A stretch of 64,000 nucleotides of DNA from Microthyrium microscopicum (GCA_010405405.1 MU004240.1:882316-946315); one strand, 5' to 3'; shown: positions 7,564 through 64,000, counted from the stretch's first letter. Notes: generated by a model from the sequence alone, not told the origin. Translations and numbers: made by a program.

Positions 7564-10500
7564 CCGTAGAAATCCAACAACATGTCCGCAAGGTAGCCAA
7601 TCGATTCAGCCAAAACAGGGTGTTGAGGAGGATAGCGCGCTAGAGGGCGTTGAAAATATAGCGCTAGTAATTTAGGTAGTATCTATTTTTGACGCCCTAA
7701 TGTTAGCGCTAAGCAAGCTATTTTGATAGATTTTGACGTTTTTAAAGATAAACTAACCTACTTTAAGCAGAATATTATTATTTTAACGATAAAGGTGTAT
7801 TTATTATAATTAGGCTAAAGCCTTGCATAGAACTTTATATATAGATTTTGCTATAAAATTCTATCTTCTTCTTTAATCTAATTAAAAGCTTTAAATATCT
7901 ATTATCTTAACTTAATCTAATTAAAAAATATTAAAATTAATATCTACAACTATGCTAAAGGTACTAAAAGAAGTATGCTAGTTATAATAAGTGCTATTAG
8001 CTAAACTAGACCTAAATATTATAAGGACGAATTATCTACGTCCTTTAAGGGCAAAACTATATACTAAAAAAAGTAAGGGATTTAATCTTTAAAAGGTTAT
8101 TACTATTACTCCTAAATTTAAGTTATTTAACGCTGCTTTAGTTTAACTATAGATAGAAGTAGTAGCATAAATACTATAATAGTATTATATACTATCTCCT
8201 AGTGAATAGTAATACCTACTACTAGAAGGTATAAAATAGTATAAATGTCTAGATATAAATTAATAGTGGCGTACTAATATAGCTATTAAAGCTACTTAAT
8301 ATTACGCGTTAAATAAAAGAACTATATAGTAGTAATAGTATTAGCGCTAGTTATTATAGTTAATTCCGTATATAAGCTATTAAGTTAAGCGTCTAGATAT
8401 ATAGAGGGAGTACTTTCTTAGACTTAAAGATATTGTTTATATATAGTACTATAAATAGCGAGCTAAAAAGAAGTCTATAGGTACTCGTTAACTACTTTAG
8501 AAAGCTAAGGCGTTATACCCTTATATTTATACTGCTAAAATTAAGACTTAAGAGATACTAGCAATCTATTAATTCTTATAAAGCTAGCTTTATAAGCACT
8601 TAAAGCGCTTCAAAATTGTATAAAGGAAGGTAACTCGCGTAGCTTAGAAACTACCTAATAAATAGGTTCCTTAGTATAGCAATCTTATTAGATTTATAAA
8701 GCTTATAACGTATAGGGCCATAGCGCTAGCTAGTAGTCTTTAAGTAAATATTAATATAGTATTAGATAAGGAATTAAAAATAGTAGTATCTACCTATTAA
8801 ATTATTAATATAGACAAGATGCTAATATCTTTTTGCAACTTTAGTAGTTATACTTTGGTAGATGTAGAGTTAAAGACAATTGCGATTTATACTTATAAAG
8901 ATAAAGATAATAAACGTTAAATAACGATCGTATTAGTAATAACGGCTAATAGTACGCTTTAAATTCCGCTACTAATTATCTTCTACGGTACTACTAATAA
9001 AGATAAAGGTCGTATCTTAAAGACTAAAGGTACGTTCTATAACTAAGAAGTATTTATTAAATATAATAAGATAGCGTAGAATAATAAGGATATTATATAG
9101 TAGTAGTTAGAATATTATTATCTTAGAAGATTAGATGTAGTAGTAAAGGGTCCTAAAGGGCCTTTAGAGGGGTCTAAATAGTCTAAAGATATTCCGTCTC
9201 CTTCTACCTTAGGTAATTCCTCTCTTATACCTTCCTAAAATAGAAATATTTTAGTACTAACTATAAGATCTAAAGCTTAATTTAACGATATCTCTTCTAA
9301 AATTAAGCCCTACTAGTACCTCTTTAATATCTTATACCTTTTTAATATTTTTAATATTTTCTACTTCTTTAATATTTATAATATATACTTCTAATCCTTC
9401 TATTCTTATTATAGACGCCTTCTCTACTTATAAAATAACTACTATTAAGTAATAGTATAAAGACTATAATATTGTTATTACTATCGTTCCTCCTAGTTAT
9501 ATATTTAAAATTTAACTGCTTAACGTTAGCGTAAATAAGCTATTTAAATAACTTGTTAAGGACCTTTAAGACTTATAGGCCCCTATATTCTATATATAAG
9601 AGTGCTTTAAGGATATAAATATTAAAGATTTAGACCCCCTTAATTAGAATATATCTTAATATTAAGTATTTATAATATATATTATAGTAGAAGCCTAGCA
9701 ATGAATTTACTTTAATAACTCTCTAATAATTAGACGCTTATTTACTACTATAGGGTTAAATACTATACTTAAAAACGTTATTATGGATAAGAAGAACAAC
9801 ATTAGTATTAAAGATTTAATATTACTATTAGACCTTTTAAACTAATATGCAATAAAGTAAGAATCTATTAATATTCTTAGTACTAGTAAAGATAAAGAGT
9901 AAGAAGAGATAAACGACCCTAATATTAAAGCTAAAGATGTTAGTAATAATAATAGTAGGGAATACTACGATAAAGAAGAAGTTAAGGGTTATATTCCTCT
10001 ACCTATTAACGAAGATAAAGTTATAGTAAATTTATCCTTTATTAAATTAATAGAAGATATATAGCAAAATCTATATATAAACGACCTAATACTTGTATTA
10101 TTACTAATTATCTTACTGTATCCTAACCCTTAGCTTAACCCTTAGCCTAATTACTAGATTCCTTTACTAAAGGATTTTAAGTAGTATTACTACTATCTTT
10201 ACTAAAATTAATAGGTAATTAAGCCGTCTAATAGCCTCTCCTAAAATGGATTACTTAGTAAATACGAAGAGTTCTATCCTACTAAGATTTAGTATCTAAC
10301 TACCTCTTTATTACTAATATTAATACTAGTATTCTAGTATCTAGGGCTTCTTTAATCTAACCCCTATCTTATTAAACGACCTAGCTAAAATATCTATCTT
10401 TAGTATTTAATAGCAATATTCTATTATTAATAAGACTACTTAAATTAGTAGTTAGACGTTAAATTAGGCAGTATTCTTAGCCTATAGTAAATATAGATAA

Positions 10501-10800
10501 GTAATAAAAATCGTAGGTAATATCTACTCTATGTTAGTATTAAAAATATGCTTTAAAAGCATTACTTATATATAATACTATATCTTCTTATTCTTACTAT
10601 TTTATACTAATAAAGATATTATTATATAGCTTTAATTTTAGGTATTTAGTAGATTTAGGGATAAGAACGCTATTATAGCTTTTAGCGTTCCAAAAATAGA
10701 TTACTATAAAATTACTATAGGGGGCATTTCTACAGAAATCGCCCTAAAAACGCCTCTCTAGCGCCCTCAACCTTGCAGACATGTTGTTGGATTTTTACGG
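7564..10800 (+). mobile_element. RIP-inactivated pogo-like (Tc1/mariner superfamily, DD35D) DNA transposon
   Basis: 30-bp TIRs CCGTAGAAATCCAACAACATGTCCGCAAGG at 7564-7593 and its reverse complement at 10771-10800 (2 mismatches), with TA on both flanks. Interior is very TpA-rich and CpA/TpG-poor. Reverting RIP gives N(M)D(E) near 8807, (M)DAFS at 9411 and (QP)L(D)V(G)VNK(P)FK at 9513. D2 at 9414 and D3 at 9522 are 36 codons apart, i.e. D35D. Confidence 0.9.
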
Positions 10801-12578
10801 TACTCGGATGTAACAACGGTAGGTAGACTTCATCTAGATTCAGCTGGGTGATAGTGCATTTTAGTAGAAGCAAAAACCACTAATTCTTGGACTGGCATCC
10901 AGTTGATTGGATGATCGGACCGCGTATAACGTGAATAGAATAGAAGTAGGACGACCCAAATAAGCGCGCATAATTTCGGATAGAACAATGGGCGCGCTGT
11001 CAATCATTTGTGGTGGTTGAAATACCTTAATACGGGTGCCTTTCAATCACATTCAATAGTCAGGGCACTGTATGATATCAAGAGCCATGCCACTTCGTTT
11101 CCAATCATCGCGCGTCGCTTGGGGAGTGCTGTTATATTTGAGAGGCGATAAAAAAGCTTCAAAATGGAGTTTCAGAACAGGAAAGGTGCCGGAAGGACAT
11201 TTGCCGCGTGCTGTAAGCATCAAACGCAGGTTCAAGTCGAAACAGGCAAATTTATCATGGCCTTGGAGGACCTGAAAGCTAAAACAGGAACGCGACACGA
11301 CCGGCTAAGGTTGTGCTTGTGAGAGAGCAACGTAACCCCAGCGTAATCCAGGGGTGTAATTCCAATAGTACAACCTTCCCTGTGGCATCTGTGCTTTGCG
11401 AGGGGAAATGATATAGGTAGGGCTGAAGACTTAGAAGAAGGGAAGATAGTGATCAGAATAATTGAATGGAGGTTTGAAATAATTTGAAGCGTTGAAAATA
11501 TGCTAAAACATGAGGCTCGCGGCAAATGCATACCTACCTAGCAAGCAACCAACAACAACGGGACGGAAACAGCAACTGGTAAGCGTCAAGGAACATCTGA
11601 ATCAGTGGAGAGGTTGCAGATGCTGGCGAATTTTGATAGGGATGAGCATGTCTTGGGGGGTGCTTAAGTCATTTTAGGAGAGGACTGACGGATAGACTGC
11701 AGGGACCTTATTCAACGGAACAGGCGCGATTGGTCAGAGTCAGTTTGCATAGCCTCGCTCATACGTAACACCCCTGGCGACGGAGGTTCGATTTGCATGG
11801 CTCTGATCCAAATCTAGCCAACCAAACCACCGTCTAGTCGCCTCTTGTGTGAGCCCACCAACAATGAATTCTCTGTGGTGTTGGAGAGTCCAGCAAAAGC
11901 CCAGCCATTTCAGTCCACTCAGTCGCGGGCAGGTGCGGCAGTCGTCATTCCCTCTTTGGTCTTGGCCCACCTGCTGCACCTGCTGCACCTGCCCAGAGAA
12001 ACAAGGTCTCCCTTTGCTCTTTCCCTCCAATCTCCTGCCCAGTTGCCCTTCCAGCGGTTCCCCAGCCCTTCTCTCAGCGACAAGCGTGCAGCATCCCAAT
12101 TCGGCTGACTCAACACTTCCCAACTGATCAAGATTCTATCTCGTCTTTCGTTTACAACCTCCCTTCATACTCTCTCAAACAAACCACCATCCTCCATCTC
12201 CGCCGTTATCCTCTGTCGTCTACTCATCAACAACGTTCGCTGTCTAGTGCTCCCATTACACCAAGTTTTTCGATTTCCCACTCGCTCCCATACTCTGCCG
12301 TTCGATCACCGATGCGAGCGGCAGGAGTTGACTTCCTCGTTACCCGCCTTTCACGACATTAACAATTCATTGCTCTCTCACCTAGTAACTTCCTGGGCAC
12401 GCTCGCTTCTCAACTAGATTCGCCTAATTTGAGACTCTCTTCTCCCTCCGCCGGCTCCGGATCACATTTCGCGTTTCAGAATTCCGACTCCATAGTTTGG
12501 TTCTCCTTTGCCTTCAACGCCAACTCCCCGGCGACTTATTTTATAATTGTCTAATTGACAACATCAACAAACCTCAAG

Positions 12579-36485: not shown

Positions 36486-37599
36486 TTATGCTTCTTTCAT
36501 ACTCGCCGCCCGCAGTACCTTCATACGTTGTTCCGACTTCTTCTTACCTCCTTCAATCCATGACTTGTAGCTATCATCGCCCTCTGCCTGCTTGGCCTTC
36601 ACCACGCCCTTGGTCAAGTCGCCAACGAAGCCTACAAAATTGTGGCGCCGCAGTGAGTTCTCCCACACCCACTCGCGTCGCTTTCGTTCCTCGATATGTA
36701 GCGTCTCCACATCACCGATCTCCTTTGCGCGGATCCGAGGATCTCTGATCATAGCTAGGAGGTTGAAGTGGATCTCACCTTCAGGGTAACGGTTGATCCG
36801 CCGTTGTAGAACGGGGACAACTTTGTCGGGAAGTTCAGTGGGTAAGCAGGCGCCATGTGATATAGGAGCTGGTGCTAAGCCATCAAGCTCGTATAGAATG
36901 CCATTTACTGATGTGTATGCGATGAAGTGATAGACGTCATCTGAGTCAGTAGAAGTGCGCTGAGTTTCGTCAATGAAGGGTGAAGCTCGTGCGAACGAAT
37001 TGTGCACCGATCTGATTAGGTCGGAATTAGATAGAGTCTCGCCCCGAAGCTGTTGGTCATATGGTTAGCATGTGAAGTGAATATGGAAGAATAAGATTGT
37101 TTCCTACATCTGGAGGAAAGGCTATAGTGAAGTCTTTGAATTCACGCAGAGGGGCGCCGATATCAACGTCGGGTATATTGAGAAGCACGCTTAGCAGAGC
37201 CTGAGTCCCACATGCATTCTGGATGACTTGTTGAGCGAAGAAGATATTTTCTGCTGCTTCTGTGTCAAAAGTGCCATCCTCTGGTTTGTTGTCGGTCGCC
37301 TTTGAAGAGACCCATTTGAAGAGAAATATTACGCCATAGATTGGGCTGTTGAGTTTCAGTATTCCGCTCGTGGCGAGATAGCGATGTAACAGACCTAAGT
37401 GAATGAAGACTGTCAGCATCTAAGCTTACAAGCTCTTCAAACTGCACACCCTTGGCTCCGAGACCTTCTAGTAAATGGGTAAAGACGCCCTGTAGATCAC
37501 AACAAGTTGTCAGTCTATGCGCCTATAACAGAGAGCACCGAGGGAAGGGTACGGTAGACGCACAGCATCGCTCTCAATCGTATTCCATCCACCAGACAT
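36486..37599 (-). CDS. UCH37: Proteasome-associated ubiquitin C-terminal hydrolase (UCH37/UCHL5)
   Basis: Exons 37599-37564, 37489-37395, 37345-37108, 37049-36486. Motifs WNTIESDAGVFT, QVIQNACGTQA (catalytic Cys), YHFIAY, YELDGL and ENSLRRHNF. Confidence 0.95.
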
Positions 37600-39394
37600 A
37601 GTGGTGTGCCGAGTACGAGATATGCAGCCGCAAAGCAGAAGATTTAGATGAGGACTCAATCCGTCGGATCTCGGTTGCGGAGATTGTGGAGAATTCGGTA
37701 ACAAATTATTGGCGGTGATGAATTTGATTGATGATGTTTAGTGGTTGAAGTGGAATTGGAAGGTTGGAAATTGAAGCTCCCCTGATCCCTGCAAAGCGTG
37801 TCCTGCCATCGACCTAGCAAAATAAAATGGCACGCTCCCCATCAACGCTGATGGCTTCCAATCACCTCCAGAGTCCAGTCAGTACAAGTTGCTATATTTG
37901 CCATCGCATTCGATAAAGCGGTAAGATGTGAACGCCCTCTATGCTATGGCAAATAAAGCACTCGATACCGAGCCATCTCTTTCTCATGCAGTGCTTCCCA
38001 GCCTGCTTATGCCCGCCTATTACCACAAGAGGAAAATTCCGTATCAAAAGCGGCAGTGACCGCTCAAAGCCTCGAGCATCTGCATCTCCTTGACATCAAT
38101 GCGGTCCAACTCCGCTCTCAATCTGGACTAGAGCCGATCAAACGTTCTTCCAGAACATCCTTCCGGAATCAAAACTCACGTACATACCCTGGATCCTAGA
38201 ACATGACGCAGCAAGCATAAGATCGCCTCATTAATCGTGCTTATGCTCTGATAGGTACCCGGTTTTGAGTAACTCGCCAGGTACCGAGGAGCAGGAGCCG
38301 CATATCACTACTTTATATGCGAATCAAAGACGGAACAAGCCATCAAATCTCTAACAACATGTCAACAAAGCAGACTTGCGCCAGAAACAGCCTGTTGTCA
38401 CTGTGTGCTCTGGTCTTGCTTGTTAATGTGGTATTGGCTCAAAGTCTTGTAGTTAGAATTTTCGGTGTAGGATTTAAACCACTAGTATGTAGGTATGGGT
38501 ATATGAGAAAGAGATGGTCGATCTTCTTTGGTAAGTTACTTCCTGGACATTCGGAGCCTCCAGGGCTCTTCTAAGATCAAGGCCCTGGCCGTATATAGAC
38601 GGTTTCTGGACATTTCAAGGAGATTTCCGTCAAACGTGTCCAAGCTGCTCACAACCTCGTCTCCGGTTCGGTATATACCAGCATTGTCCACTTATGACCT
38701 ATATTCCATGCCCGGTAAACACTGGGAATGTACTTTGGGAACAACGAGTTCACTCTCCGGAATTGACGGTCTTCCACCTCGCCTACGGACACAGCTATAA
38801 GTCGAAGAGATATTCCCGAGATCGAAAGTGAAATGAGATGGACCCTCTTTTTACCCCGAAAGTTGAGTAATCAACAGCTCTGATAATTCGTGACATAAGA
38901 ATATTTAAAAAGCCTACCGTTTGTCATCCAACATGAAAGTACAAGAAGAACCATAATCCAATGCGCTAATGTGAACGAGATGGACCAGATGAACCAGAAA
39001 ACATCAGGGATAAAGAGAAAACGCTAAGCGATATGTTACAAGGAAAATACAAAAGAAAAAGAATCCGAGCAAATCAGATATCCCCGCGCGCGTGCCTGGT
39101 CCAAAGCTGACATCGCTAGGCCACCGCTGTTGCCCATCATTAATCATAATATAGGAAATATAGCCTCCTAGCCCTTGTTTTACCCTTCCAGCGCCAGCCT
39201 GATGATAAATGCCCCTATAAACTCACAATATAAGATAATGTCTATACAGCATAGACAAGCGAAAGGAAGCAGCAGTAGATCCCCTGGAGATCAATCCTAA
39301 TCAATATGCGTGCCGGATTGCCGGATGTTCGTTCGATGGTTCCTGATAGCTAATTCAATGTACCCCTGCTGGTACTGCTATCATTGGTTGAATT

Positions 39395-39514
39395 TGTATT
39401 AGCAGGCTGATGTTGTGCATCGTGTTGCAACTGTTGCTGTTGTTGATGTCGCTGTTGCTGTTGTTGATGATGATGGGAAGTTGGATGAGAATGAGGATGA
39501 GGATGCTGTTGTAA
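39395..39514 (-). repeat. CAT/CAA/CAG trinucleotide-rich tract behind the C6 TF stop codon
   Basis: Minus strand CAT CCT CAT CCT CAT ... CAT CAT CAT CAA CAA CAG CAA CAG CGA CAT CAA CAA CAG CAA CAG, in frame with the CDS. Confidence 0.85.
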
Positions 39515-39565
39515 TGTGCCAGCCCTGGTTTTCGTCTTAGCTGGATGATGGAAAACAACATCTTG

Positions 39566-41619
39566 TCACGTCCAAACGGCCGTAGGGACCACGCACCCGC
39601 CGGCAATGCCTCCAGTGCTTCCTAGATATCCGGCACTGCTTGAATTTAATGCACTCCCATACGGAGAGATTGGCGACACTCCCATTCCTCCAAAGTCTAC
39701 TGCGGCTCGAGGCGCATGGTGAAAGTCTGGTAAAGGAAGCTGATACGTTGCGCTATCTGGCTCTGACTTGAAGCCAGGGGAAATCAGGGGTGAATTTCCA
39801 TATGCTGAGGTCGGGGTAGTCTGATATGATGTAGTAGGCGTATAAGGTTTGTAAAATCCGTCAACTGCGCTACCAACTGCACTTCCAGGCACTTCCAGAA
39901 ACGGCGATCTCGGGAGGTTCGTGGAGATAGGTGGTGGAGTCATATGTATCGTTGTCGATGCAAAAGCTGGGGAAAGGCTGGGAGTATGAGCCTGCTGATC
40001 GGCTAATTGTGTGATCAAATCAAGGCCCATGTTTTCTGCAAACGGCTGTCCGACTGGAGAATGTAGCGATGCTTGTTGCTGAGCCCATTCCCGCCGACTT
40101 TTAAAGCGAGACAAAGCATCTCGAGGAAAGTCCATAAGTACCGCCGCCGTTTGAGAAAGCGTGTCGTATTGTTGAGTGGCTTGACAAGTCTGGATAATGT
40201 TAATGATTTCAGTCAGTGGATTTGCAGCATGCGATGCTAGAAATGGTGCTCCAACGTCTGGAAAGACTCGTTCCAGGAGAAGAGCAGCTGCGTAGAAATG
40301 CGATAGCACCAAAAGAGTATGGATGTCTCCTCTACGAGACGAGAGTAGATTGACTGGTAGCCAGAAAAGCATTTTGCGCAAATGGTATAATTGGTCAAAC
40401 TGCTCTTTTGGCGTTTGAGCGGGCGGAGAGTTTCGTAGCGAGTCCATCAAGGTTCGCATTTGATCAACTAATTTGGTATCTTCTGGAGGCTGGGACACAG
40501 ATGTCTGTAACCTGTGAAATGCAGCGTGGATAGTCTGTATCGTGTTTCCATTTTCACGGCGGTCTTCTGCTGTCACCTGGAAAGCGCTTTCGTTGTTGAA
40601 GCCTTGCAAAGGGTCAATTGGACTTTGGGAAAGATATTCCTCGAAAACGGACTCGGGACGAAATCGCTGCATGACATGTATAACCTAGGACATAATTAGT
40701 ATTCATAGTTGCAGTGGATCCCGAAGACGTACTGTCTTCAAGCCCGACATTGATTGAGCCCAGTTTTTCCTAGAAACAGTTAGTGCTGATGTGCTTCAAT
40801 CCGAGTGGCTACACTTACCAGTCATTTTGAAGCCATGATAAGATCAAGCTCGCAGCCAAGATACCATCCGCATTGGTCTTGGAAAACTTCGCACGCGTGT
40901 CTTGAAGCCCTCGAGTAGCTAAACCGACATAATCATTGGCGAGTACACGCGCATCGTTCGATTGCGTCTCCCATGCCATATGCGAAGCTGAGAAAGCGTA
41001 GATAGCGTGCATGACAAAGTCATGGTTAGCCGCGACTGCTAAGCACCTTGATGACATGATTAGTTTGTAGTACAAGAAACAAAACTGTCAATATAGTTAA
41101 CTTACTTGGGCATTATGTTTGTCCAAAGAGCAAGTTTGGCCGTTCGACTACTGAGTAGCCCGTTCAAAATGGAGCAAACATGGTAAAGTAATCTTGCTTC
41201 GTTGCGAGAAGCAGTTTTGACTTGAGGTTGTGGGAAGATATCCAGCTCTGGAAATGGAAACTGATCGGTTTGCCTCCATACCTCAACAGCCCTTTCAATC
41301 TCTGAAGTCCAATTCAATCCAGTCTGCGTAGATATTCGCAACCCTTCATCCACAACTGGTGGAAGGTCCATGTAGTCACACCTCACCTGGTGCTTGGTAC
41401 AGTTGCGGCTATAAACTTGTCAGCAACAGCGTAGAGGACTTGAGTTATCCTTACCATTGCGGAAATGTCTCATCGCATCTTATATGCCTCCGCTTGCATG
41501 TTTTACAGCCCTTTCTGGACTTAGTATGACTGCGTCCGTTTAGCAGGATGTAAGTACACTCGTAAGGCTATTGCTAAAGCTTACCTGCGACGTGAAGGTC
41601 CTCCACCACGACCAGCCAT
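39566..41619 (-). CDS. Zn(II)2Cys6 transcription factor (Upc2-like 'C6 finger' family)
   Basis: Exons 41619-41585, 41529-41455, 41408-41106, 41046-40819, 40769-40733, 40684-39566 give MAGRGGGPSRRSHTKSRKGCKTCKRRHIRCDETFPQCRNCTKHQVRCDY, plus FVMHAIYAFSASH and LRKMLFWLP. Ends VVPTAVWT*. Confidence 0.93.
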
Positions 41620-44600
41620 TGAATTTGAGTGCTCAAAGGAAATTCTGGATCAAAGCAAATCAAGCTCCTTTGGATTTCGGACCCGGTAGTAGACGATCGC
41701 TGAAGTGAGAAATCTGATGATGTTGGGAGTACTAAACTTGTTTAGGAGGAGATATTCCCAATAGGCCGCCGTTTCATATGACAAGGCTATTGCTAGCAAC
41801 TACCTAGCACACTTGCTGCTCGTGTTCTTTGAGCATGAAAGACGTCAATGAAGAGGCTTAGATGACGGGAAGGGCCGTAAGATTGCCGAGCGTGGTGATT
41901 AGAACTCGAGAGGCGCAGAGTAGAATACGATGTGTCGAAAGCGTAAAGCTATTTGTCAAACCAGTGGTGCCTTGTTCTGTACATGAGAAGTTTGAAGTGC
42001 TCACTTCAAACTTGAAGAATACAAAAGATGGTGTATCGAGAAGAAGACGGAACAGGCAGGTAGGTAAGAAATGTTAACGAATGGCGGAACGTGTATGCAG
42101 GGAGTTAAACCCAAAGAGAACAGGACGAGGCTGTGGACAGAGAAGTAATATCTTGCGAAACTGAACGCATAGGTACATGTCAGACCTATCGCCTTGCTTG
42201 TGGGGGGATGGACGGGGTCAGTGATTTTCCTTTTGGGACGTTAAGTTACAGCTGGGGATAACCGGACTGGAGACGCATATGCTAGTAGGAATGAGTATAC
42301 GGTACGGACTACCTTTAATAGAAGCAGGCCACGGACAGAGCTATGACCAAGGAGAAATAAGTCGAAACTAGAGGGCGGACCGACAGAGTCCATCCTCAGC
42401 AGCTCCAATAATTCAGAATGACACGGCTCGAATTGCCACTGGTTGGTCAGTCACCGCCAGCCAGCAACCAGCAGAAGCGTCCATCCAAAGCAGCACCAGA
42501 GTTCTCCAACCCCGATTTCTCGTATAGCTTAGCCTCAGTGTCACAATCCTACTAAAATAAAACTACATTCAACGCTCCGCACGCAGCCGAGCGGGCTGAC
42601 AGCTCTGCTGCAGGACCAACGTTCAGCCACCGTTGACCGGCTGTGGTTAGGCCAGTCGGTCCACAACCCAAACGCTTTGAAGATGTGATGAATGGGGGAC
42701 AGGGGGAATGGTGAAGGGGTCAATGTGTTGTGCGCCATCATTAATGTTTCGGGGGATATTTACCACGGAGCATGGCACCAAGTCTAGACATGGTCGCAGG
42801 AGTCCAGTAGTGTGAGCAGGGCTGGAAGAAGAATGGCCAAGTCTAACTACGGAGGCATAGACATGGGATAGAGAATGGGACAGTGCCGGATGATCAACAA
42901 CAAGACGCGAAATGGTCGCGGTGGGAACTGGGGGTTCAGCAAGAAATGATTTCATAGGCGAAAGCAATAATAAAGATCCCAACGGGGGGGTGGGAAGTCT
43001 GAAGGAGAGGGGATTAGTTAAAGAATCCTTGGAGAGTCATTCAGCCGCGTGTGGTCGCTGTGGTGTGAACCAAAACCAAGCCATGCTGCCAACCCCACAA
43101 ACGCCGTGGCAGACAAGGAGCGGACCGTCATTCCAGTCAGTCACCGTCGTGATGGCCATGGTGTGCTGCTTTGTCGTGGATGCTGCGAATTGCTGAAGAG
43201 TTGAACCCTGAAGCCACCATGTATGATTGAATTCCTCATCTTCAGAAGACACGCCAGATAGGACAGGAGTCTAACCACGATTCTTAGTGTCACAAACTCA
43301 CAGACAGACCACCAAGCTGGTATTTCCAAGATCCCAAAGTACAAACCCGCAGTTGGCCTCGCTTCATCTGTCCGTCGGCTTGCATACTCCAGTCCCTATC
43401 CTAAGTCAACACACCAGTGCAGGATCCGACCACACGGGCTTGCATTTTAAGATGCAGCTGCATCATAACCTTGAACCGACGTTGGACTGTTGACTTGTCA
43501 AAATTGGGTAATATCCATCTGTTAATCAATCCGCAAGACCCTGTCGTTGCCCGCATGGAACGACCATTTGGTGCACAGCCCTGACCTGAGCATTTTGGGA
43601 CAAGCCACCCGCCGGCCCATGGTCAATCAAGCTGTCAATCGATCCATGAACGATCAACTGTCTGCCTGATGCTGCGGAAGCTGAGAGCCCACGAGCCTGT
43701 CTGGTCCAAGAGCTCCTCAACTCTGCACGGCCAGGCGATTCATCTCAGGGCCAAAGACGGCCAAGCAAGCGAACATACGTAACCAAACGAGGACCTTTCT
43801 TTGACGCCCTACTCTATCTCGTTGCGTAGTCCTACGGCTCGTTGCTTTGATTCATTCTCTAGCACCGAGATTATTCATGATTTTGATATGGAATTATTAT
43901 ATCCCATCGGAGGTGACTTGACTATTCTAGCCACTGGCCAGCCGACTCCAGCCCTACCTCTACCGAGAAGTTGAGGGTCGTTGTCGTGGATCATGGCTTT
44001 AAAGTACAAATTGATCGACTAATTCTCCTAGACTTCCGCCTCGCTTCCGGGTTATTCCATGTGCACTTCCCTGACAGGTCCAGTATTGTTCCAACGGTCG
44101 AGACCAATTAGCCAATTGATACTAGCGCTTCTTTGAATCCAGGCACCACGCTCGCTAGTCTTACGCACGCTATGTAAAAGTTATTACAGTAGGTAGATAT
44201 ATCATTTACTCGTTCACCTATACTTTACATTCCTTTCATGTCTGTTTATAGTTTTAAGATTTGCAGGTGAGGTAGAACACTCACATACACCGTTGGCTTC
44301 AAGATCTCTTGTCCCGTTTATCATTGACAGATTTTTACGCATGACTTTGTTTGGTTCTCTTTACTTTCCACGTACATAAGGATCAGTGTTCAATAATGTT
44401 ATTTGCATGGCGTTCTTCAGACGAGAAGCTAGCTACAAATGGAATGCAATCAACAAATGTCAACTTATGTCATCACTGTATGTCAGAATTGCCGCTCGTC
44501 TGCACATTTATCAATTGACATGCCGTCGGCCGATGTGATAGCTTTCTTGAACAGGTCAGCGAGAAAAGCTGCCTCTTTTTCTTTTCGGAGCCTCCTTTTT

Positions 44601-52699: not shown

Positions 52700-53518
52700 T
52701 GTGGGACTTTGATGAATTTTTTGGGGGGAATTATAGCCTCGATCAGCTTGAACCTGAGCTCTCGTACTCATCAGAGTCATGAGATTCCGGGACGCAGCGA
52801 TTTAGGCTCGCTAAAACGCCTCTCTATAGGCTTAGCAGGTTTAGACTCTAGAACCCTTAAAGTTCCTAAACCTAAATTACTTCCTATAGAGAGCCTAAAT
52901 TAGAAGAAAGTATAATACTACTAAGCTATTTAGAGAACCTAAATTATATTACTAATAATTAATTCTATTATAATTCTACTAACTTTTTATAACCTATTTT
53001 AAAATACTTAGTATATATTAATTAACTTTAGTATATATATTTATAATTAAAGATACTCTATATAATTCTAATATAGTTTATATAAACTTAAAATATAAAG
53101 AATATAAGTATATTATTAAAGCAAACTTTAATTTTCTAATAAAGGTAGCTAACTATAGCTACCTAGTAAATAAAAGAATTTCTTTATAATTCTTCTAAAT
53201 AAAGCTAAAAGATACTAAAGACTAACGAACAATAAGGTAGAATTCTACTAGAATTCTTTATTAATGCTTATAAGCATTATAAAAGATAGTAGCTAAGTAA
53301 GAGCGTAACTAGTCTTTATTACTATTTTTATTATAGCTAAAATTCTAACCTAATTCTAACTCTTCTAAAACGTTTAAGTAACTAAAATTACTTAATAAGT
53401 TACTTAATAAGTTATCTTCTTTATTAACTATACGCTCTTTATCTAAGAAAAAAGTAGAATTATTATTATAAGCTATTATAGATATAAGTAATTATAGTAG
53501 AATTATAGAAAAAGATAT
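52700..53518. mobile_element. Unclassified RIP-degraded repeat relic at the edge of the AT-rich block
   Basis: Gradual switch to TpA-rich, CpA/TpG-poor sequence, interrupted at 53519 by an LTR start. No domain recognised. Confidence 0.5.
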
Positions 53519-56500
53519 TGTAAGGATTCCTTACTAAAGTATAATAGCTTTAGTATTAAGCTAGATCTTAAATAAAGATCTAGCGGCGCTAGTCCTAATT
53601 AGGACTAGCGTCCCTAAGGATCTTCTAAGCATTACCCTCTTCTTCCTTTAGCGTAGATTCTACTCTACTTCTCTCTCTTCCTTTATACGCTAAATTATTA
53701 AATATTATCTACCCTTTGCTTAATTACGTACCTATTAAATCTTTATATAATCTAGCGTACCTATTAAACCTAAAAATCAACTTTAAAATTATTTATACAT
53801 TTATCTTTAGGGATTAGCGCTCTTAGATTTTAGGACCTATACTTAAGAGATAGCTTACGCGCGTTCTTACTTATAAACTCCTTAATATAGTTAGGTAGCA
53901 TATCTTTACTACCTTCTAAAAAATACTAATTAATTGTCTTTAATAAGGTATTTAACGTAAACACCTAGATCTTATAATAGTCTAAGCTCTTAGAACCTCT
54001 CTACTTAGCTATATAGAACCTTTATCCTTCTACCTCTCTTTATACTACTAACCTACATTTTAATTACCCTTAATTTATTAACTTATCCATCCCTAGTAAT
54101 TAAGAAATTATCTAATTGTTATTACTCGTTATTACTTCTACGTAACTACTTATTAATAAAACTATAGACCCTTTTAAAGAGTTTTCTCCCTTAGCGCCTT
54201 TAGGCCTTAACGTAACTACTTACTCTTAATTATAGTTTATATCTTCTTAACGCTAAGATGAAATAGTTCTAGGCTCTTCTTATAGCTACTATACGTTAGT
54301 TATTAGCTACTATTAGGATTAAGATCCTAAAGGCTTATTTATAAAGAAAGTAGTAATAAATATATAAGACTCTATATAAGCTACTATTTAGACCTCTTAA
54401 TAAGAAAAGAGTAAGCGCTAGCTATTATATACTAATTCTAATAAAGATAATAATCTCTTACTCTCTAACTTATCTACTTATAGCTAAGTAAACTAGAAGC
54501 TAATCTTATTACCTATTTAGTACATATTTAGTAGTAAACTCTTATAACTAATTAAAACTATAGCGTTTACTACGCTCTTAGTAGAACTAATTACTCTAGT
54601 AATACCTTTAGCTTTTTATAAGAACGTATAAGAAGCAAAAAAAGGAAAGATATTTAAAGGAATCTATTCTACTATATTAGTCTAGTTATAAGAAATATAG
54701 CTCTAAAATAATAGTTATAAGGAGGTCCCTTTAGCTTTCTAAAATAATTACCTAGTAGTTAATAATATAGTACGTATTATATTCTTTTAAGTCTTCTAAG
54801 GCCCTCTCTAGATATAAGTTTATAAAGATCTAAAAGTAGCTATACTAGAAGGTTTCTTAAACTTATTACTACTATTTTATCGTTAAGAACTTAATCTTAT
54901 TACTAAGGTATTTAAAGATTACTATCTAATTTATAATACTTAAGAGCTAAAGTAAGAAGTTATATAGAAAGATTCTTAACTTTTATTTAATTAAATTTAC
55001 GCTACCTTAGTTATAAACTAAGCTATAGTAGTATACTACTAATTTTACTATAATAAATTATAAAAGAGTAATATCTAAAATGCTAAGTTTTTAAAGGAGA
55101 TCTAAGATCTTACGAATAAGGTAAATAACCTAAAAAGCTTTATAGTTAACTATAAGGTAGAAGTAGATAAGCTCTTCTTAAAAGTTAAAGGACTTTAGAT
55201 TAGTATAATTAATTATTATAAACTTATTTCTAATTATTATTAACTATAGCATAATATTTAGGTAATAGAAAACTATACTACTTTTATAAAAATAGAGTTA
55301 GTATATTATATAAAATAACTCTAAGAATATTATAAGTAGATATAACTTTAGAATACTACTATTATAAACCTTAATACTAAAAATAAATCCCTTACTTAAC
55401 GTCTTTATACTATAAAGTAGTAAATATAAGATCTTCTAATCTTTATAAAACTTTATAATATACTAGCTTTTATACGCCTAAGAGATAAAGAAGATGCTAA
55501 ATTACTTAGTAATATACTATATTAACTTATAGTTACTTAACTTAACCTAGTATAAATATATTTTATATTACCTTTCTTAGAAGTAGAGTCTAATTCCTTA
55601 AATAACATTACTCTATATATTAGTTAATCTTATTATATAGTTAAATAGTATAATAGTAAGGATAAGAGTAAATACTATTAGTAGAAAGATTAAGTATTAA
55701 ACGTTCTAGAAGAAGATACTTAGTTTTACTTAACTAATAAGAAGAAGATTTAGTTTATTCGTAATAATCTAGATAATTTAATATAGTCTCTAATATTATA
55801 TTACTTAGGCTACAATTCTATAAGCTTCTACCTTATTGTTAATAATATATAGAAGGACCTAGACGCTTATAATAAAGTAATAAATAAATATAATATTATA
55901 AAGTAGTAGTTCTACTTAGTAGACGCTAAAATAAAGACTATAAAGGACCTAACGAAATTCTTAGGCTACTTTTTAAAGAAAACTAAGAACGTAGACTTAA
56001 AGGATTATAATAAAGTTATAGAACTATGCTTACTTCTCTTAGGACAATTTATTTGCCCTCTAATAGAACGTAATATTAAAACCTACCTAGAACTCTATAT
56101 ATATCTATATAATATAGAATAAGACCTAAACTTCCTAAAGCAGAATAATAATAATAATTCTAATACTAATAACTCTAATAGTAGTAGTGCTAATAATAAT
56201 AACTTAACTAATAATTTAGGGAACTAGAATAAAGGCGCCTATAATAATAATAGCTAGAATAGTAGTAAATATCTATACTACCTAAATAATGTCTTTCTAG
56301 CTTTATAAGTATAAAATAGGTGCTCTAAATATAGTAAAAAAGGTTATACCTTAGGATAAAAGGATACTCTTTATAGATAGAAGACCTACTTAATAGATAA
56401 TAAAATTTAACTAAAAGTTTTAGTAATACTTACTACTATAGTAAATGCTTTCTAGGTAAAAATACTTAGCGTATATTTATATAAGTATTTAAACTAAATA

Positions 56501-58044
56501 CTCTACCTTACTAACGTAAGGAGGAGCTAAACCTATAAAAAGTATATAATTAGCAAAAGAAGTAAGAATTAGGCTAGATTTAAGATAAGATTTAGGAGCT
56601 AGAAACCTAGTAAGCAAATCTAAACCTACTATTAGTAGTATGCTACGTTATTTAACTATCCTTAGTAGTAATTAATCTAGGATAGCTACTACTAAATAAC
56701 GTTAACTACGTACCTTTTATAGAGCTATAATAGATAATAGTTAAAAGCATACTAATTCTAGAAGCTAATACTTTTAAGAAGTATAACGTACTAATTAATA
56801 TTAGTAGTAGCGTACTTAGAATTATCTATACTTACTTTATTAAATAATATAATATACTAAAAATATAACTTAACTAATTACGCTTAGTAGAGCTTATAAA
56901 TAGAAAGACTATTATTAAAATTAATAAAGCTATACTAGTTACTATACGTATTAGAAGTTATATTAAATAGATATACTATTTTGTAATAAAAGCAGCTACT
57001 TATAATCTTATTCTTAGTAACCCTTAGATCTAGCTTTATAAGGTATACCTAAGAGAAGGTAAGAAAACTATTACGTTTAACTCTTATTATTACTTTTATA
57101 ATTATATTCTAATACGTTATCTTATTAAAGTTAATACTTAAGGACAATATAACTTTATTACGAAACCTCTAGAAAATAAAGAAGTAGTAGTAGTATCTAT
57201 ATACGTTATAATAATACTTATAAAGCGCAAAGGTTAAATAGTAGAAGTTCTCTATTCTAAGGACTTTGCTAAGCCTAAAGATAAAAAGTTACTAGATAGC
57301 TCTTTACTAAAGAACTTTTTAATAGAGAAGAAGAAGCTATTTAACCTCTTAGGAATATTAGACCTAATCTTCTTTATAGATAATATAGCAATTAATCTAT
57401 CTACTATCTTAGAATATAATTTTAAGAAGTAGCAAGAAAAGCATAAGCGTCCTTATCTTACTTATAAAGAACTTTATAAAATAATTCTAGAGGAATTTTA
57501 TTACTATCTTAAAGTCTTTAATCTATAGAAAGTAAATAAATTACTACCTTACTACCTAGGTTTTAATTATTCTATTAATCTTATACTAAACGTTACTATA
57601 CTAAAATAATATAGTACTAGTATAAACCTAAAATAAAATATTATTATTAAATAGTATCTAGAAGGTCTATTAGGAAAAGGCTTTATACGCTCTTCTAAAT
57701 TATACTTTATAGTACTAATATTATACGTATATAAACTAGGTAAAGGTATTTAAGTCTATATTAATTATTAAGGTCTTAATAAAATCTCTTATAAGAATAA
57801 GAATATATTACTATTACTTCCTAATACTTTAGTAAAGCTATATTAAGTATAGTACTATAGTAAATTTAACGTCATTATAGCCTATAAGTAAATATAGGTT
57901 AAATCTAGGGATAAATATAAAATAGCCTTCTCTATATAATATAGTTTCTATAAGTTTATTATTATATCTTTTAGATTAACTAGCACTCCTAGTACCTTTT
58001 AAGTATATATTAACTACGTCTTAATAAAGTATCTTAACGACTTT
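53519..58044 (+). mobile_element. RIP-inactivated Ty3/gypsy LTR retrotransposon A (5' part, interrupted in RT)
   Basis: Probable LTR 53519-~53747 (TGTAAGGATT...AATCTTTATA, read as RIP-mutated AATCCTTACA). RIP-reverted protease end Y(D)LIL(G)NP(W) at 57001; RT KGFIRSS...(R)V(C)I(D)Y(R)GLN near 57676-57780 and (MP)F(G)LT...YL(D)DF up to 58044. Confidence 0.85.
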
Positions 58045-61000
58045 TGTCACGGACCCCTATAGACTCGCTATAGAGGCATAGGTATCTTGCTACCTCTTTA
58101 CTCTCTCTACTCTTACAATACGCTATAGAAAGGCTTTTTGCTAGTAAACTACTAAGTTAATATAAATAGTACCTACTCTCTATTATAATAAGATAAAGCT
58201 AAATAGAGCTAAGGATAAGAAGAAGAAGTAGCCTTACTAAAAAGAAGATAGAGAGGAGTATAAGTAAAGAAGTAGACTTAATCTCTAGAGAGATTAAGTA
58301 TTAGTTTTATCTTAATACTAGTTCTTAGAATCTATTTCCCTTACTTTAAACTATCCTTTATAATTCTAATACTTCTCAACGTACTATATAGTAGTAAGCT
58401 TAATAGATTCTTATAATAATAAGGAGTATAAGGAACTTTAATAGAAGCTAAAATAAAAGCAAAGATAAAAATAAAGACCTAAATAATAACTTAGATAATA
58501 ACTTAGATAATAACTTAAGTTAATATAATAACCTACTACTACTAATAGACTTAGAAGCTACTTTAGCTATCCTTTATATAATAATAGCTTAAATTAATGA
58601 ATAAGAATAAGCACACGTAGCTAAGATATAATAGCTCTATAATAAGATTATAGCCTTATTATAAGCCTCTTAATAGAATCCTCCTCCTCCTTCTTAACTA
58701 AGAGAATTAAAACCTACTAACCTTATAGTCCTTTAATATAAAACTTAATAAGAACTTATTAACTAGACTATAAGAGTAGAAAATGCTTTCTATTTAGTAC
58801 CTTCTTAATTCGCTATATAAGAAAACTATATTAGATAAGCTAGCTAGTTTATAAGTCTTAACCTATAAACTTAATAGAACCTAAAGAAGAAGAAGATTAA
58901 GCTACTAACTTAAACTTAGGAAAAGTTTATAGAATAGCTCTAATATTAATACGCTTACCTTACTATAGCTAAACTTTTAGTTACTAAGAAACTTAAAAAA
59001 GCTAAGTAGCGTTCTACCTAGACTCTTATAGAGTTTAATACCTACTTAGACTTACTAGAAACCTAACTTAGTATTAATATGACTTACGAAAGAGATAAAT
59101 AATACTTAAAATTCCTTACTAAGCTAACCTTAGAACTATAGAAATAGATTAAACTAATAGAGTATATCCTAATTACTAGACTAGATATAGTTAATACTAT
59201 TAAATACTTTTAGTAAATTACCTATAAGCGCTTATAAGAAGATCTATTAGGTAACGTTAATTCTTAACCTCTATAATTAAATTATAATCTATAAGATAGC
59301 TAAGATAAATAATAGAGGCGTAAAGGTCGTATAAGGTATATACTATTAAATTACTTACTAGTAAGTATAAAGCCTAAAAAAGATAGCAAGATATATAAGG
59401 GAATTACCTATTATAATTATAACCTATTTAGATATTATATAAATAAGTATAATAAGCTTCTAAGAGGCCTTTAGGTTACCTAAAGGCAAGGAAGTTTCTT
59501 AAAATATAGAAGCTAAAGGAGGAACCTAAATACTATTCTTCTCTTATTAAGATCTAGAATTAACCTAAAAAAAGAGTAAGTATTATAGGGGTTAAGAACC
59601 CTATCCTTATAATACTAGATTAAACTATAGAGGTATAGATTTAGATAATAACTAATCTTCCTCTTACTATAAAAGATTAATCTATAAACGTTCTCTTAGA
59701 TACTAGTAGTTAAATTAATATTATTAATAAATAATTTACGTAATACTATAGCCTTAAGAAAGTAACTATAGAAAGTATTTAAGTTATAGGTTTTACTAAT
59801 AATATAATAGAAAGCAAATATTATAGTATATATTAGCTATATTTTTATTATAAAGACTTCTCTAGTATCTATAAGAATATTAAATACTATTTCTTCTCTT
59901 TTAATTAGACTAAATATATCTACCTTATAGTATAGGGAACCTCTCTATAAGAGAAATATAATATTTCTATCTACCTAAGGTAGAAGAAGTAGCTATTTAG
60001 AAAAGAGAAGCTAAAATACGAGATTATAGACTAGAATATATTTAAGAAAAAGCTATAAGAATATAGTAAAATATTTAAACTAACTATAAAATTTAATAAG
60101 TACCTATACTTAAATAGTAGAAAGGTAGAGATCTCTAGTATTAGCTTTAAGCTAAGCTTATAGGCAGATATTAATCTAAAAAATAAACTACTATAAGAGC
60201 TATAGAATTTAGCCTCTTAAGTTAAGGCTAGAGATAAAAATAAACCTATCTCTAAAGGTATTAAATATACTATTAAGATAACTATAGATCCTCCTTTTAG
60301 ACCTATCTATAACTTATTAGTAATAAAATTTAAGATACTATAAGAATACCTTAAGTTAGCTCTTATAAAAGGCTAAATCTAGGAATTAACTAGCCTAGCT
60401 AGAGTACCTATACTCTTTATACCTAAGAAGAATAAAGGATTACGACTTTATATAGACTACTACTTACTTAATATAGTTACTATTAAAAACTATTACCTAT
60501 TTCCTTTAATAAGTAAGATATTAGATTAACTTAGTAGAGTAGTATACTATACTAAGATAAACCTTAAGAATACCTATACCTAAATACTTATTAGAAAATA
60601 AGATTAATAAAAGATAGTATTTTATACCTAATATAGATACTATAAATACTAAGTTATACCTTTTAGACTTACTAATACCTTAGTTATATTCTAAGCCTAT
60701 ATTTATAAAGCATTAGTAGAACTCTTAAATATTATTTATATTATCTACCTTAATAATATCCTTATCTTCTTTAAAATATATAAGGATTATATTTATAATA
60801 TATATACTATATTAGAATACCTACTAGCTACTAAGCTTTATACTAATCCTAAAAAGTATTAATTCTTTACTAACGAGGTAGAATTCCTTAGTTTTATAGT
60901 CTCTATAAAAAGAGTAAAAATAGATCTTAGTTAAGTTAAGTTTATTACGAAATAGCTAGAGCCTAGGAGCTATAATAATATATAAGTATTTATTAGCTTT

Positions 61001-64000
61001 ATAAATTTCTATTATAGGTTTATTAAAGGCTACTTAAAGGTAACAAAACTCTTAACTAACTTACTTAAAAGTATATAACTTAAAAGGAAATATAGACCTT
61101 TTATTTAGATAAAGAAAGTAGCGTAAGTATTTTATATACTTTATATAGCTTTTAATAAAGCTCCTATCTTTATATATTTTAACTTAAAGAAAAGGATTTA
61201 CCTTAAAATTAATATATCCTAGCATACTATTATAGGTATTCTTTCCTAGCTATAGAAAGATAGCTAATAGTACCTTATTACTTTTTAGTTAAGGAAATTA
61301 ATAAAGGCTAAGATTAACTATTAAACTTATAATTAGGAACTTCTTATTATTATTAAAGCTATAAAATATTAGTAATATTATCTTAAGAATAGTTACTACT
61401 CTATTAAGATTCTAACTAACTATAATAACCTAGTAGGGTTTATAAAATAGAAAAACTTAAATAGGTACTAAGTGTGCTAAGCAATTATACTAGTAAAGTA
61501 TAACTTCTATATTAGGTATTAAAATAGAAAGATAAATTTTATAGATATACTATTAAGATAACTTAACTATACTACTATAGAATAGGCTATAAATAACTTG
61601 CTACTTACCTTTTAGAAGAAGCTAGAACTCCTTTTAGAAAAAGAATAAAAAAAGCTAGTCTTTATAAATAGTCTTAAGCTAATAAAGTAACTTACTAGTA
61701 AGATACTAATAATAAATAAGTATAACTTTATAGATAAGATATTTAATATTAAGTACTACCTAGTACTAAATATATTAAGAATAGGTAAGATACCTTATAA
61801 GTAAATAAGTAGCTAAGATGCTATAAGTAAAGAGAGTAAAGACTTTCTTAGCTCCTAAAAAATAGTTACTACTCTAGACTATATTTATATCCTAAGAATT
61901 ATAGTAAGAAAAGTAATATAAGACCTATATATTATAAATAGAGAAGCTCTAAATATACTAATTACTTTAGTCTAAGTTACCTAAGATAGTAATAAGGAAC
62001 TTAAGTATATCTAAGAAGTATTTAATATATAGCTAGAGTCTAAAGAGACCTAATAGCTAAAGAATACTTAGTTAGTTTAAAGAGACTACCTCTACTATAA
62101 GAGCTAATTATATATACCTTATAAGCTTACCTTAAGAAATAAACTCTTAGTAATATACTATAATAACCTACTAGTAAGATACCTAAGGATCTAAAATACT
62201 ATAAAACTACTCTATAAATAGTTTTACTAGCTAAAAATAGAAGAAGACGTATAGATATATATAAAGACTTACCTAGTCTACTAAAGGATAAAAGTAAGAT
62301 AATATTAACCCTATAGTGAGTTAAAGTCTCTACTTTAATTAACCTAACTATAATAAGAAATTACTATAGACTTTATTATAAGTTTACTACCTTATAAATA
62401 TAAACTTATAATATTTAACGCTATACTAGTAATTATAGATTAGTATACTAAATAAATAAGGTATATTAAAACTATAAAAAATATAACTACTAAAGAGCTA
62501 GTAGAACTTATAGAAAAAAGAATTTTCTTAGAAAAAGGCCTACTAGTAGGTATTATATTAGATAGAGAATTTATCTTTATAAGTAAATTTTAAACTAAAC
62601 TATACTAAGTAAGAAAGGTAAAATATAGGCTATCTATAGCCTAGTATCTATAAATTAATAGCTAAACTAAGTAGTAAAACTTAGTACTAAGATATTACCT
62701 ATAAGCCTTTACTATTAAAAACTAGATAAACTAGTTAAGCCTCCTACTTATAGTATAATAGGTAATAAATATATCTTATAATAAGATACTTAACTATACT
62801 CTAAATATAGCTAAAATAAGATATAAACTAACTCTCTTAGTAGACCTTCTTATAGACTCTAAGAATAGGTTTAAAGAAGAAGGAAGTAAGGTAGTAATAG
62901 TAAAGTAAAGAGTAGTAAAAATAGAATAAGACTAAGAAAAGATAGTAGAATGCTAAGGAAAAGTAGTAGAATACTAAGCTAAGTTCTATAATAAGAAGTA
63001 TACCCTAATATTATTCTATATAGGAGATAAGGTTCTACTATTAATAAAGAATATTAAACTTAAATTACTAAGTAAGAAGCTAGCTTTTTACTATATAGAA
63101 CTATTTAGTATTTAAGACGTAGTTAGAGAATAAGCCTACTAACTAAACCTTCTAATAGGCTACTAAATCTATAACGTCTTCTATATATCTAAACTTAAGC
63201 TATATTATTAAAAAGAAGGTTAAGAAGAACTAGAGCTCCTTATAGCTATTAAGCTAAAAGATAAAGAAGAATAGAAAGTAAGAGCTATCTTAGATAAGAG
63301 AAAATAAAAAAGGAAAGTTAAATATTTTATTTATTAGTAAGGCTATCCCCTAACTTATAACTCTTAAAAATAAGAAAAAGACTATAAAAATATATAAGAC
63401 TTAATTAAGGTTTTTAAAAAAGCTAGTAGACCTAAGTTTATTATTATAAAGAAAAGAAAAAGAGAAAAATAAAACTATAAAGAAAGGTATTATAAGAGAG
63501 AAGAGATTTTTATATACTTTTTATTTACTATAAAAAAGTAACTAATTAGTAGGATAAAAAATAGAAAACTAAAAATAAAAATAGTAAAAATTATAACTAG
63601 GTAAATTATTAATAAGACATAAATAAAACCTAAATAAAATTAAGGAGTCTTATAAGAGACTAGTAGGCTAGTACTATAAAAAAAAGGACTCTTCTCTATA
63701 GAGATAAAAAGAGTAGACTACTAGCGAATATAATAAAAAATAAGAATTTTTCTTAAACGCTATAATTATAGATAGCAAGTTAATAAAAAGACTAGTCCTA
63801 AAAGATATTAAGACTAGTAACTTACGCCTAAAGAAATAAATAAATATAGTATTTACGTAATTAAAACGTAACCTAATTACTAAACCCTAATTCTATATAT
63901 TAAAACGCTATAACTTTAAAAGTAGGCGTTAGATACTATTAGTTACTCTAAGACTATTAGAAAAGGAGTATATAATAAATATAGCTAGAGTAATTAGCGT
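58045..64000 (+). mobile_element. RIP-inactivated Ty3/gypsy chromovirus B nested in element A
   Basis: Starts TGTCACG at 58045, LTR to ~58190. RIP-reverted gag CX2CX4HX4C knuckle 59409-59450, protease LLDT(G)S near 59693, RT YL(DD) at 60746, RNase H, integrase (M)DFI near 62367 and (S)DR(G) near 62557, chromodomain E(WE)V..IL...(WQ)GYP...(D)S(WE) near 63269-63370. No 3' LTR recognised inside the window. Confidence 0.9.

Follow-up and report, generated by a model that had tools for sequence, protein, structure and literature searches.

The gene described here lies on the minus strand of a 64,000-nucleotide (nt) stretch of DNA from the Dothideomycete Microthyrium microscopicum (the window, in whose numbering all positions are given). 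With Pfam matches to both PF00172 (E = 1.5e-8) and PF11951 (E = 1.8e-6) passing the cut-off, it is classed by sequence as a Zn2Cys6 transcription factor gene of the TAH-3/Upc2-like group. Its TGA stop (39568-39566) is followed by CAA and 71 open in-frame codons up to a TAG (39352-39350), with the translation given in the original prediction, which had attributed this extension to programmed readthrough or stop-codon editing. The best explanation, and probably the correct one, is that the stop codon is contained within an anciently conserved, weak terminal intron. Splicing of 39596-39525 would remove the last 9 residues together with the TGA and add a 57-residue His/Gln tail. The predicted existence of two C-terminal isoforms is probably true, but the mechanism would be splicing rather than readthrough, and 57 codons rather than 71 would be added.

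An initial alignment of 36 proteins revealed a common end position in 35, of which 33 carried a Trp-containing motif. A metagenome scan then yielded 50 loci, of which 8 run off before the stop and one (L036) ends before the acceptor; the 41 remaining loci and the window gave 42 loci, reduced to 30 distinct ends upon removal of 12 duplicates. The sequence GGG-T[TG]C-GT, which encodes Gly-[Phe/Cys]-Val, is present in each of the 42 loci that have a stop and spells a splice donor, GTTCGT or GTGCGT. The Gly codon is GGG in 30/30 distinct ends, compared with 59/397 (15%) of the other Gly codons in the same exons and 24/122 of the Gly codons that precede T. Likewise, the Phe codon is TTC in 28/28 cases at the donor versus 271/403 elsewhere.

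Behind the stop, a branch-point motif followed after 11-19 nt by an acceptor AG and then G was present in 30/30 ends. By chance, the branch and CAG|G-type acceptor pattern occurred in 21/6000 shuffles and 0/834 deeper 3′ windows, figures that must be set against the facts that the 30 ends are related rather than independent trials and that the pattern was derived from those same sequences. Intron lengths range from 52 to 90 nt, with remainders of 0, 1 and 2 on division by 3 in 8, 12 and 10 ends, respectively. The branch motif terminates in a purine in 30/30 terminal introns, with a consensus-type motif nearby in only 1/30; by contrast, the motif of the next upstream intron carries a pyrimidine in 20/20 usable loci (29 examined; L023 was left out of this control), which suggests that the terminal splice signals are kept weak. 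This is very probably a conserved splicing event in the gene family. The intron before the window's last exon is absent in L013, L016, L019 and L024, whose contigs keep other introns and the terminal intron.

Both forms were evident among related proteins. The best 120 of 381 matches of a profile search included 111 new proteins. The retained motif forms the end of 80 of them, and the other 31 end differently; 25 of these 31 non-canonical ends diverge directly after the donor Gly, a count reached from 27 flagged by script after P0184 and P0173 were dropped by eye. P0184 (Logan) follows the common end for a few residues more than the other proteins before departing from it, and in the Botrytis models P0212, P0215 and P0216 the start of the tail is 11 residues shorter, as would result from a later acceptor. 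Annotated isoforms of Neurospora crassa (ESA42437/ESA42438) are identical over 553 amino acids (aa), and the same pairing is annotated in Verruconis gallopava (KIV99742/KIV99743) and Botrytis cinerea (P0204/P0205). These species belong to three classes, the Sordariomycetes, Dothideomycetes and Leotiomycetes, respectively. In addition, the JGI open reading frames P0269 (1272-nt contig) and P0273 (1383-nt contig) match loci L019 and L022, respectively, at 99-100% in two blocks separated by 55 nt with a change of frame, which is exactly the predicted intron. Their use as junction evidence assumes an intron-blind gene caller; the calling of the alternative exon as a separate 41-aa reading frame (P0260/P0262) on long contigs fits such a caller. 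Because gene models can be ab initio, P0269 and P0273 are given more weight than the annotated pairs.

The alternative exon was found to behave as coding sequence. The tail read in the spliced frame is at least 17 aa long in 30/30 ends, compared with tails shorter than 17 aa in 14/30 and 7/30 ends for the other two frames. Across 11 non-overlapping pairs of homologues, mismatches at the three codon positions numbered 69/331, 82/327 and 117/328, a third-position enrichment (117/328 versus 151/658 at the other positions) with P = 2e-5. The pooled ratio of nonsynonymous to synonymous substitution (dN/dS) was 0.34, which reflects weaker constraint than in the upstream coding sequence (0.13) and is biased downward by protein-guided alignment; in 2/11 pairs (L002/L005 and L015/L025), the proportion of synonymous differences (pS) was smaller than that of nonsynonymous differences (pN). 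The synonymous bias for which the original prediction had proposed a check is thus seen in the homologues' alternative exon and, judged by these substitution patterns, the exon is under purifying selection. The suggestion that the His/Gln tract is coding is probably right. A further signature is the tripeptide KGK, which occurs 16 times in the 63,238 residues of the 111 proteins (best 120 of 381 matches), always in alternative tails and always 5-9 residues from their end, and is present in 16/31 non-canonical ends.

Transcript evidence for the window gene comes from one run, X1, in the form of assembled contigs, from which rare variants and rare forms drop out. The gene model comprises 6 coding exons and 598 codons, and the database protein P0001 (598 aa) is 100% identical over the last exon. 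All five introns of the model appear spliced in the X1 contigs, and the run was therefore taken as RNA. The features of the gene and its transcript are as follows.

41620-42957, minus strand: 5′ leader, 1338 nt or longer, containing 16 upstream ATGs; RNA contig extends to 42957.
41585-41619, minus strand: coding exon 1, with the ATG at 41619; gene model and RNA.
41455-41529, minus strand: coding exon 2, Zn2Cys6 cluster PF00172 (aa 19-50, continuing into exon 3); gene model, RNA and Pfam.
41106-41408, minus strand: coding exon 3; gene model and RNA.
40819-41046, minus strand: coding exon 4, part of the Upc2-like middle domain PF11951 (aa 140-234); gene model, RNA and Pfam.
40733-40769, minus strand: coding exon 5; gene model and RNA.
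39597-40684, minus strand: exon 6, common to both isoforms, with the remaining helical core and a disordered Ser/Pro/Thr-rich region; gene model, RNA and AlphaFold model.
39525-39596, minus strand: putative alternative terminal intron of 72 nt, holding the last 9 codons and the TGA; comparative evidence, retained in RNA of X1.
39591-39596, minus strand: predicted 5′ splice site GTGCGT within the Gly-Cys-Val codons (GGG TGC GTG); GGG-T[TG]C-GT in 30/30 distinct ends.
39569-39598, minus strand: conserved motif at the end of the retained form, G-[FC]-V-x-P-x(n)-[VI]-W-T; protein alignments.
39566-39568, minus strand: TGA stop of the retained isoform; sequence, gene model and P0001.
39536-39541, minus strand: predicted branch-point motif GCTAAG, with the A at 39537, 12 nt before the acceptor, and a non-consensus purine after the A; comparative evidence.
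39525-39527, minus strand: predicted 3′ splice site CAG, then G; AG followed by G in 30/30 ends.
39350-39524, minus strand: predicted alternative last coding exon, a 57-residue His/Gln/Asn/Ser-rich tail and TAG; comparative evidence, inferred in this species.
38083-39349, minus strand: 3′ untranslated region, to the limit of the RNA contig.

Upstream open reading frames in the 5′ leader range from 1 to 102 codons, suggestive of translational control. Downstream, a single X1 contig spans 39594-38083 without any altered letter; the main form therefore carries an unedited stop, and the mRNA includes the His/Gln tract. The X1 contigs break at 39595, the +2 base of the donor, for which a single-base bubble (e.g. 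at a sequencing-error hot spot) would be a fitting cause, and depth arithmetic places all 6 unlisted X1 records in the bin 39514-39764. Reading the break as a sign of splicing was rejected: a spliced path would resume at 39525, the next contig begins at 39594, and there is no extra depth in the bin 39263-39513.

Use of the terminal intron in M. microscopicum itself is likely, judging from the signals shared with its homologues, but a number of observations weigh against this interpretation, some of them for the family as a whole. Entries of the spliced type are for the most part gene models, which may have been predicted ab initio. The retained motif ends 42/44 transcript-like proteins (JGI, Logan and ENA, picked by their source columns), and the spliced form is therefore minor. 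Intron-less contigs (L023, L025, L026 and L028) keep the terminal intron unspliced. Retention dominates in the family, and the retained form is present in the mature mRNA of M. microscopicum and of its relatives. No junction for the terminal intron was found in X1, where the contig runs through the intron unbroken and rare forms would be lost, and there was no spliced-type end among the closest relatives in the representative search (best 150 of 244 matches). Two rival acceptors are present, at 39541 (a 56-nt intron followed by an immediate stop) and 39536 (61 nt, another frame). The window tail lacks KGK, and the DNA comparison covers homologues other than the closest relatives P0002-P0016 (39-60% identity) and hence does not extend to this His/Gln tail.

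These points bear most directly on the possibility that an ancestral intron, functional in relatives, has decayed or fallen out of use here, leaving the His/Gln tract as a neutral 3′ untranslated repeat. The missing X1 junction and the absence of KGK would both fit such decay. Tandem Repeats Finder detected two weak period-6 arrays in the tract (scores 32 and 39), and openness by itself is weak evidence, as had been cautioned originally: 71 codons are reached by 101/1728 and 85/1850 stop-to-stop frames in 11001-53000 of the window, real exons included, such that openness of at least 71 codons is a ∼5% event. As also pointed out originally, a second frame is open over the tract (39355-39621 stop to stop, 88 codons). 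A Pfam search of the 71-aa frame gave no match, and 59-70 codons are open behind the stop in 3/22 homologues whose tail is out of frame with it. The last 57 codons include 9 CAA, 6 CAG, 9 CAT and 1 CAC. Decay is nevertheless unlikely. The three splice signals are intact in the family pattern, with a branch-to-acceptor distance of 12 nt within the family range of 11-19, and the GCTAAG branch motif also occurs in homologues such as L038, L042 and L044. Moreover, Gln/His-rich tails are carried by the spliced forms of relatives (P0025, P0075, P0204 and L039).

Splicing to one of the other acceptors would have different consequences, with the terminal motif simply lost at 39541 or replaced from an Ile/Asn-rich frame at 39536. 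The former has a pyrimidine run before CAG and would give an intron of typical length (56 nt). Neither site, however, has a family-type branch motif upstream, both overlapping GCTAAG itself, and they are followed by C (39541) and A (39536) rather than by the G found in 30/30 family ends, which makes this alternative very unlikely.

Programmed readthrough of TGA-CAA, by which all 71 codons would be added, fared no better. UGA with C at the +4 position is an established leaky stop context, and the frame here is open and within the mRNA. A conserved TGA-C(AA) is absent from the homologues, however. Stops among the 30 distinct ends are TGA (22), TAA (6) and TAG (2), the +4 base is C in 3/30, and TGA-C occurs in 1/30, the window gene alone; tandem stops are present in two homologues. 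Nor is the frame behind the stop maintained: it closes within 10 codons in 16/30 ends. The homologous tail is in frame with the stop in 8/30 and out of frame in 22/30, with all three frames occurring; it is in frame here because the intron length of 72 is a multiple of 3. Furthermore, the core signal reported for fungal readthrough is UGA-CU, in which the second base matters (PMC4207609), in contrast to the UGA-CA of the window gene. With stops and contexts varied and frames broken, programmed readthrough is unsupported and highly improbable, although a low-level leak in M. microscopicum alone would be compatible with these findings.

Fungal A-to-I editing prefers U before A and is mainly reported from Sordariomycetes. 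Conversion of TGA to TGG at some stage, for which stop-loss editing in Fusarium sexual development (as described in PMC13123824) offers a precedent, is the least probable alternative of all, given that no other letter was found over the stop in the X1 contig (one run, with rare variants lost in contigs) and that the frame argument against readthrough holds equally.

The alternative terminal intron would exchange one C-terminus for another, and the structural context of that exchange was considered. In the AlphaFold model, a helical core spanning residues ∼70-435 is predicted with confidence, and confidence is low for the arm that extends from residue 458 to the C-terminus. The terminal motif is accordingly regarded as a short linear motif carried by a disordered arm. 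A G[FC]V..P..WT end is kept by many remote family members, with identities of 25-35% (P0316-P0457; best 150 of 244 matches). The best sequence match of the middle domain is the Upc2 ligand-binding domain (7vpr, E = 3e-12), with alignment over approximately the first 140 residues. Counting against a defined role, the terminal motif is without structure in the model (predicted local distance difference test score below 50 for residues 540-598), and no docking of the motif onto the core was seen there. The fold match to Upc2 is likewise weak (E = 0.025, template modelling score 0.43 by target), and no Foldseek match reached E = 0.001 or better.

Zn2Cys6 factors have C-terminal activation regions, and in Upc2 an activation loop at the C-terminus has been described as binding Hsp90 (PMC13304746). 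By analogy, the hydrophobic G[FC]V..WT motif may be an activation or cofactor-docking element. Splicing would delete it and substitute a polar tail that in many lineages finishes with a basic KGK motif. The retained form would then be the fully active default, and the spliced form would keep the DNA-binding and middle domains with altered activity, location or stability. Sub-optimal splice signals might be maintained so that retention stays the default and the isoform ratio remains tunable. Such an activity-switch function of the splice choice, argued from analogy, is plausible but put slightly below an even chance. More tentative still is the fuller proposal that the switch dates to the split of Dothideomycetes, Leotiomycetes and Sordariomycetes and exchanges a WT-ending activator for an antagonist or relocalized KGK-tail form, with the non-consensus branch point and motif-embedded donor sensing spliceosome state or stress and so setting output at the RNA level.

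In the surrounding window, a ubiquitin C-terminal hydrolase gene (PF01088, PF18031) lies downstream on the same strand (36486-37700, minus strand). Such a gene is also found behind the stop in 4/11 homologous loci with at least 2500 nt, and one gene model (P0148) fuses it to the factor. An X1 contig at 37838-37967, in which two short stretches match and long ends are left unmatched, is probably chimeric. A low-depth spliced transcript with a GT..AG intron at 43221-43287 and short open reading frames only is present at 43141-43500 (plus strand), divergent from the leader of the factor gene. AT-rich blocks at 8001-11000 and 53001-64000 (G+C content 0.21-0.30) are probably repeats mutated by repeat-induced point mutation, and a telomere-like 12-mer array occurs at 10122-10150.

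Among characterized proteins, N. crassa TAH-3 (NCU03686) shows 37% identity to the window protein over 521 aa (E = 3e-121). The relationship is one of similarity; the window protein has a single match in its own genome, and an intron position is shared. TAH-3 has the same domain order, and its two isoforms (564 and 644 aa) split after the same Gly, but its tail is Pro/Ser-rich and ∼90 aa long rather than His/Gln-rich. The locus is annotated "oxidase assembly protein 2"; the link to the name TAH-3 is from a table in PMC5940138. Phenotypes described for tah-3 include staurosporine sensitivity, plasma tolerance and ∼30% lower secretion, and the gene is linked to secretion under endoplasmic reticulum stress (PMC4065252, PMC4399147). 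The Botrytis homologue is given as light- and resveratrol-induced, and homologue identifiers are listed in PMC12941672; isoforms are not mentioned in the passages concerned. Solved Upc2 ligand-binding domains are the best match to the window middle domain, but the sequence alignment is limited to ∼140 residues and the fold score is weak; no splice-swapped ends of Upc2 are reported in the literature found.

As for mechanism, SKI7/HBS1 and PTC7 are described as cases of conserved fungal alternative splicing with two proteins per gene (PMC3597508) and resemble the present event in being ancient. They depend, however, on a choice between 3′ splice sites or on an internal intron, whereas here a stop-containing terminal intron would swap the C-termini and the donor doubles as coding sequence for the retained motif. 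Cryptic peroxisomal C-termini arise by readthrough at UGA-CU (PMC4207609) and likewise provide a minor isoform with a new C-terminal signal, as there described. In the window gene, by contrast, the UGA-CA lacks conservation, the final tripeptide of the tail does not resemble the type 1 peroxisomal targeting signal, and the mechanism would be splicing. The Zn2Cys6 factor CRG1 of Trichoderma guizhouense, for which light enhances the retention of an intron (PMC12232718), is similarly tuned through intron retention; it is, however, a different gene (orthologue NCU07745) in which the second intron is concerned, and its light-regulated event is reported there as not shown by its orthologues. No published description of the terminal-intron event was found in the literature searched, although it may be listed in genome-wide splicing tables among supplements, which that search did not cover. 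The type of event, conserved fungal alternative splicing as in SKI7/HBS1, is already known, and both isoforms are already in annotations.

An alternative terminal intron accounts for the disagreement among gene models about the C-terminus in this gene family. A stop-containing intron with a length divisible by 3 mimics readthrough, and an apparent open extension past a stop can turn out to be an unrecognized alternative exon. In fungi, alternative splicing that is deeply conserved and gives rise to two proteins is described as a rarity (PMC3597508), and the present case sits in a stress-related transcription factor for which a Neurospora knockout strain exists and is hence directly testable.

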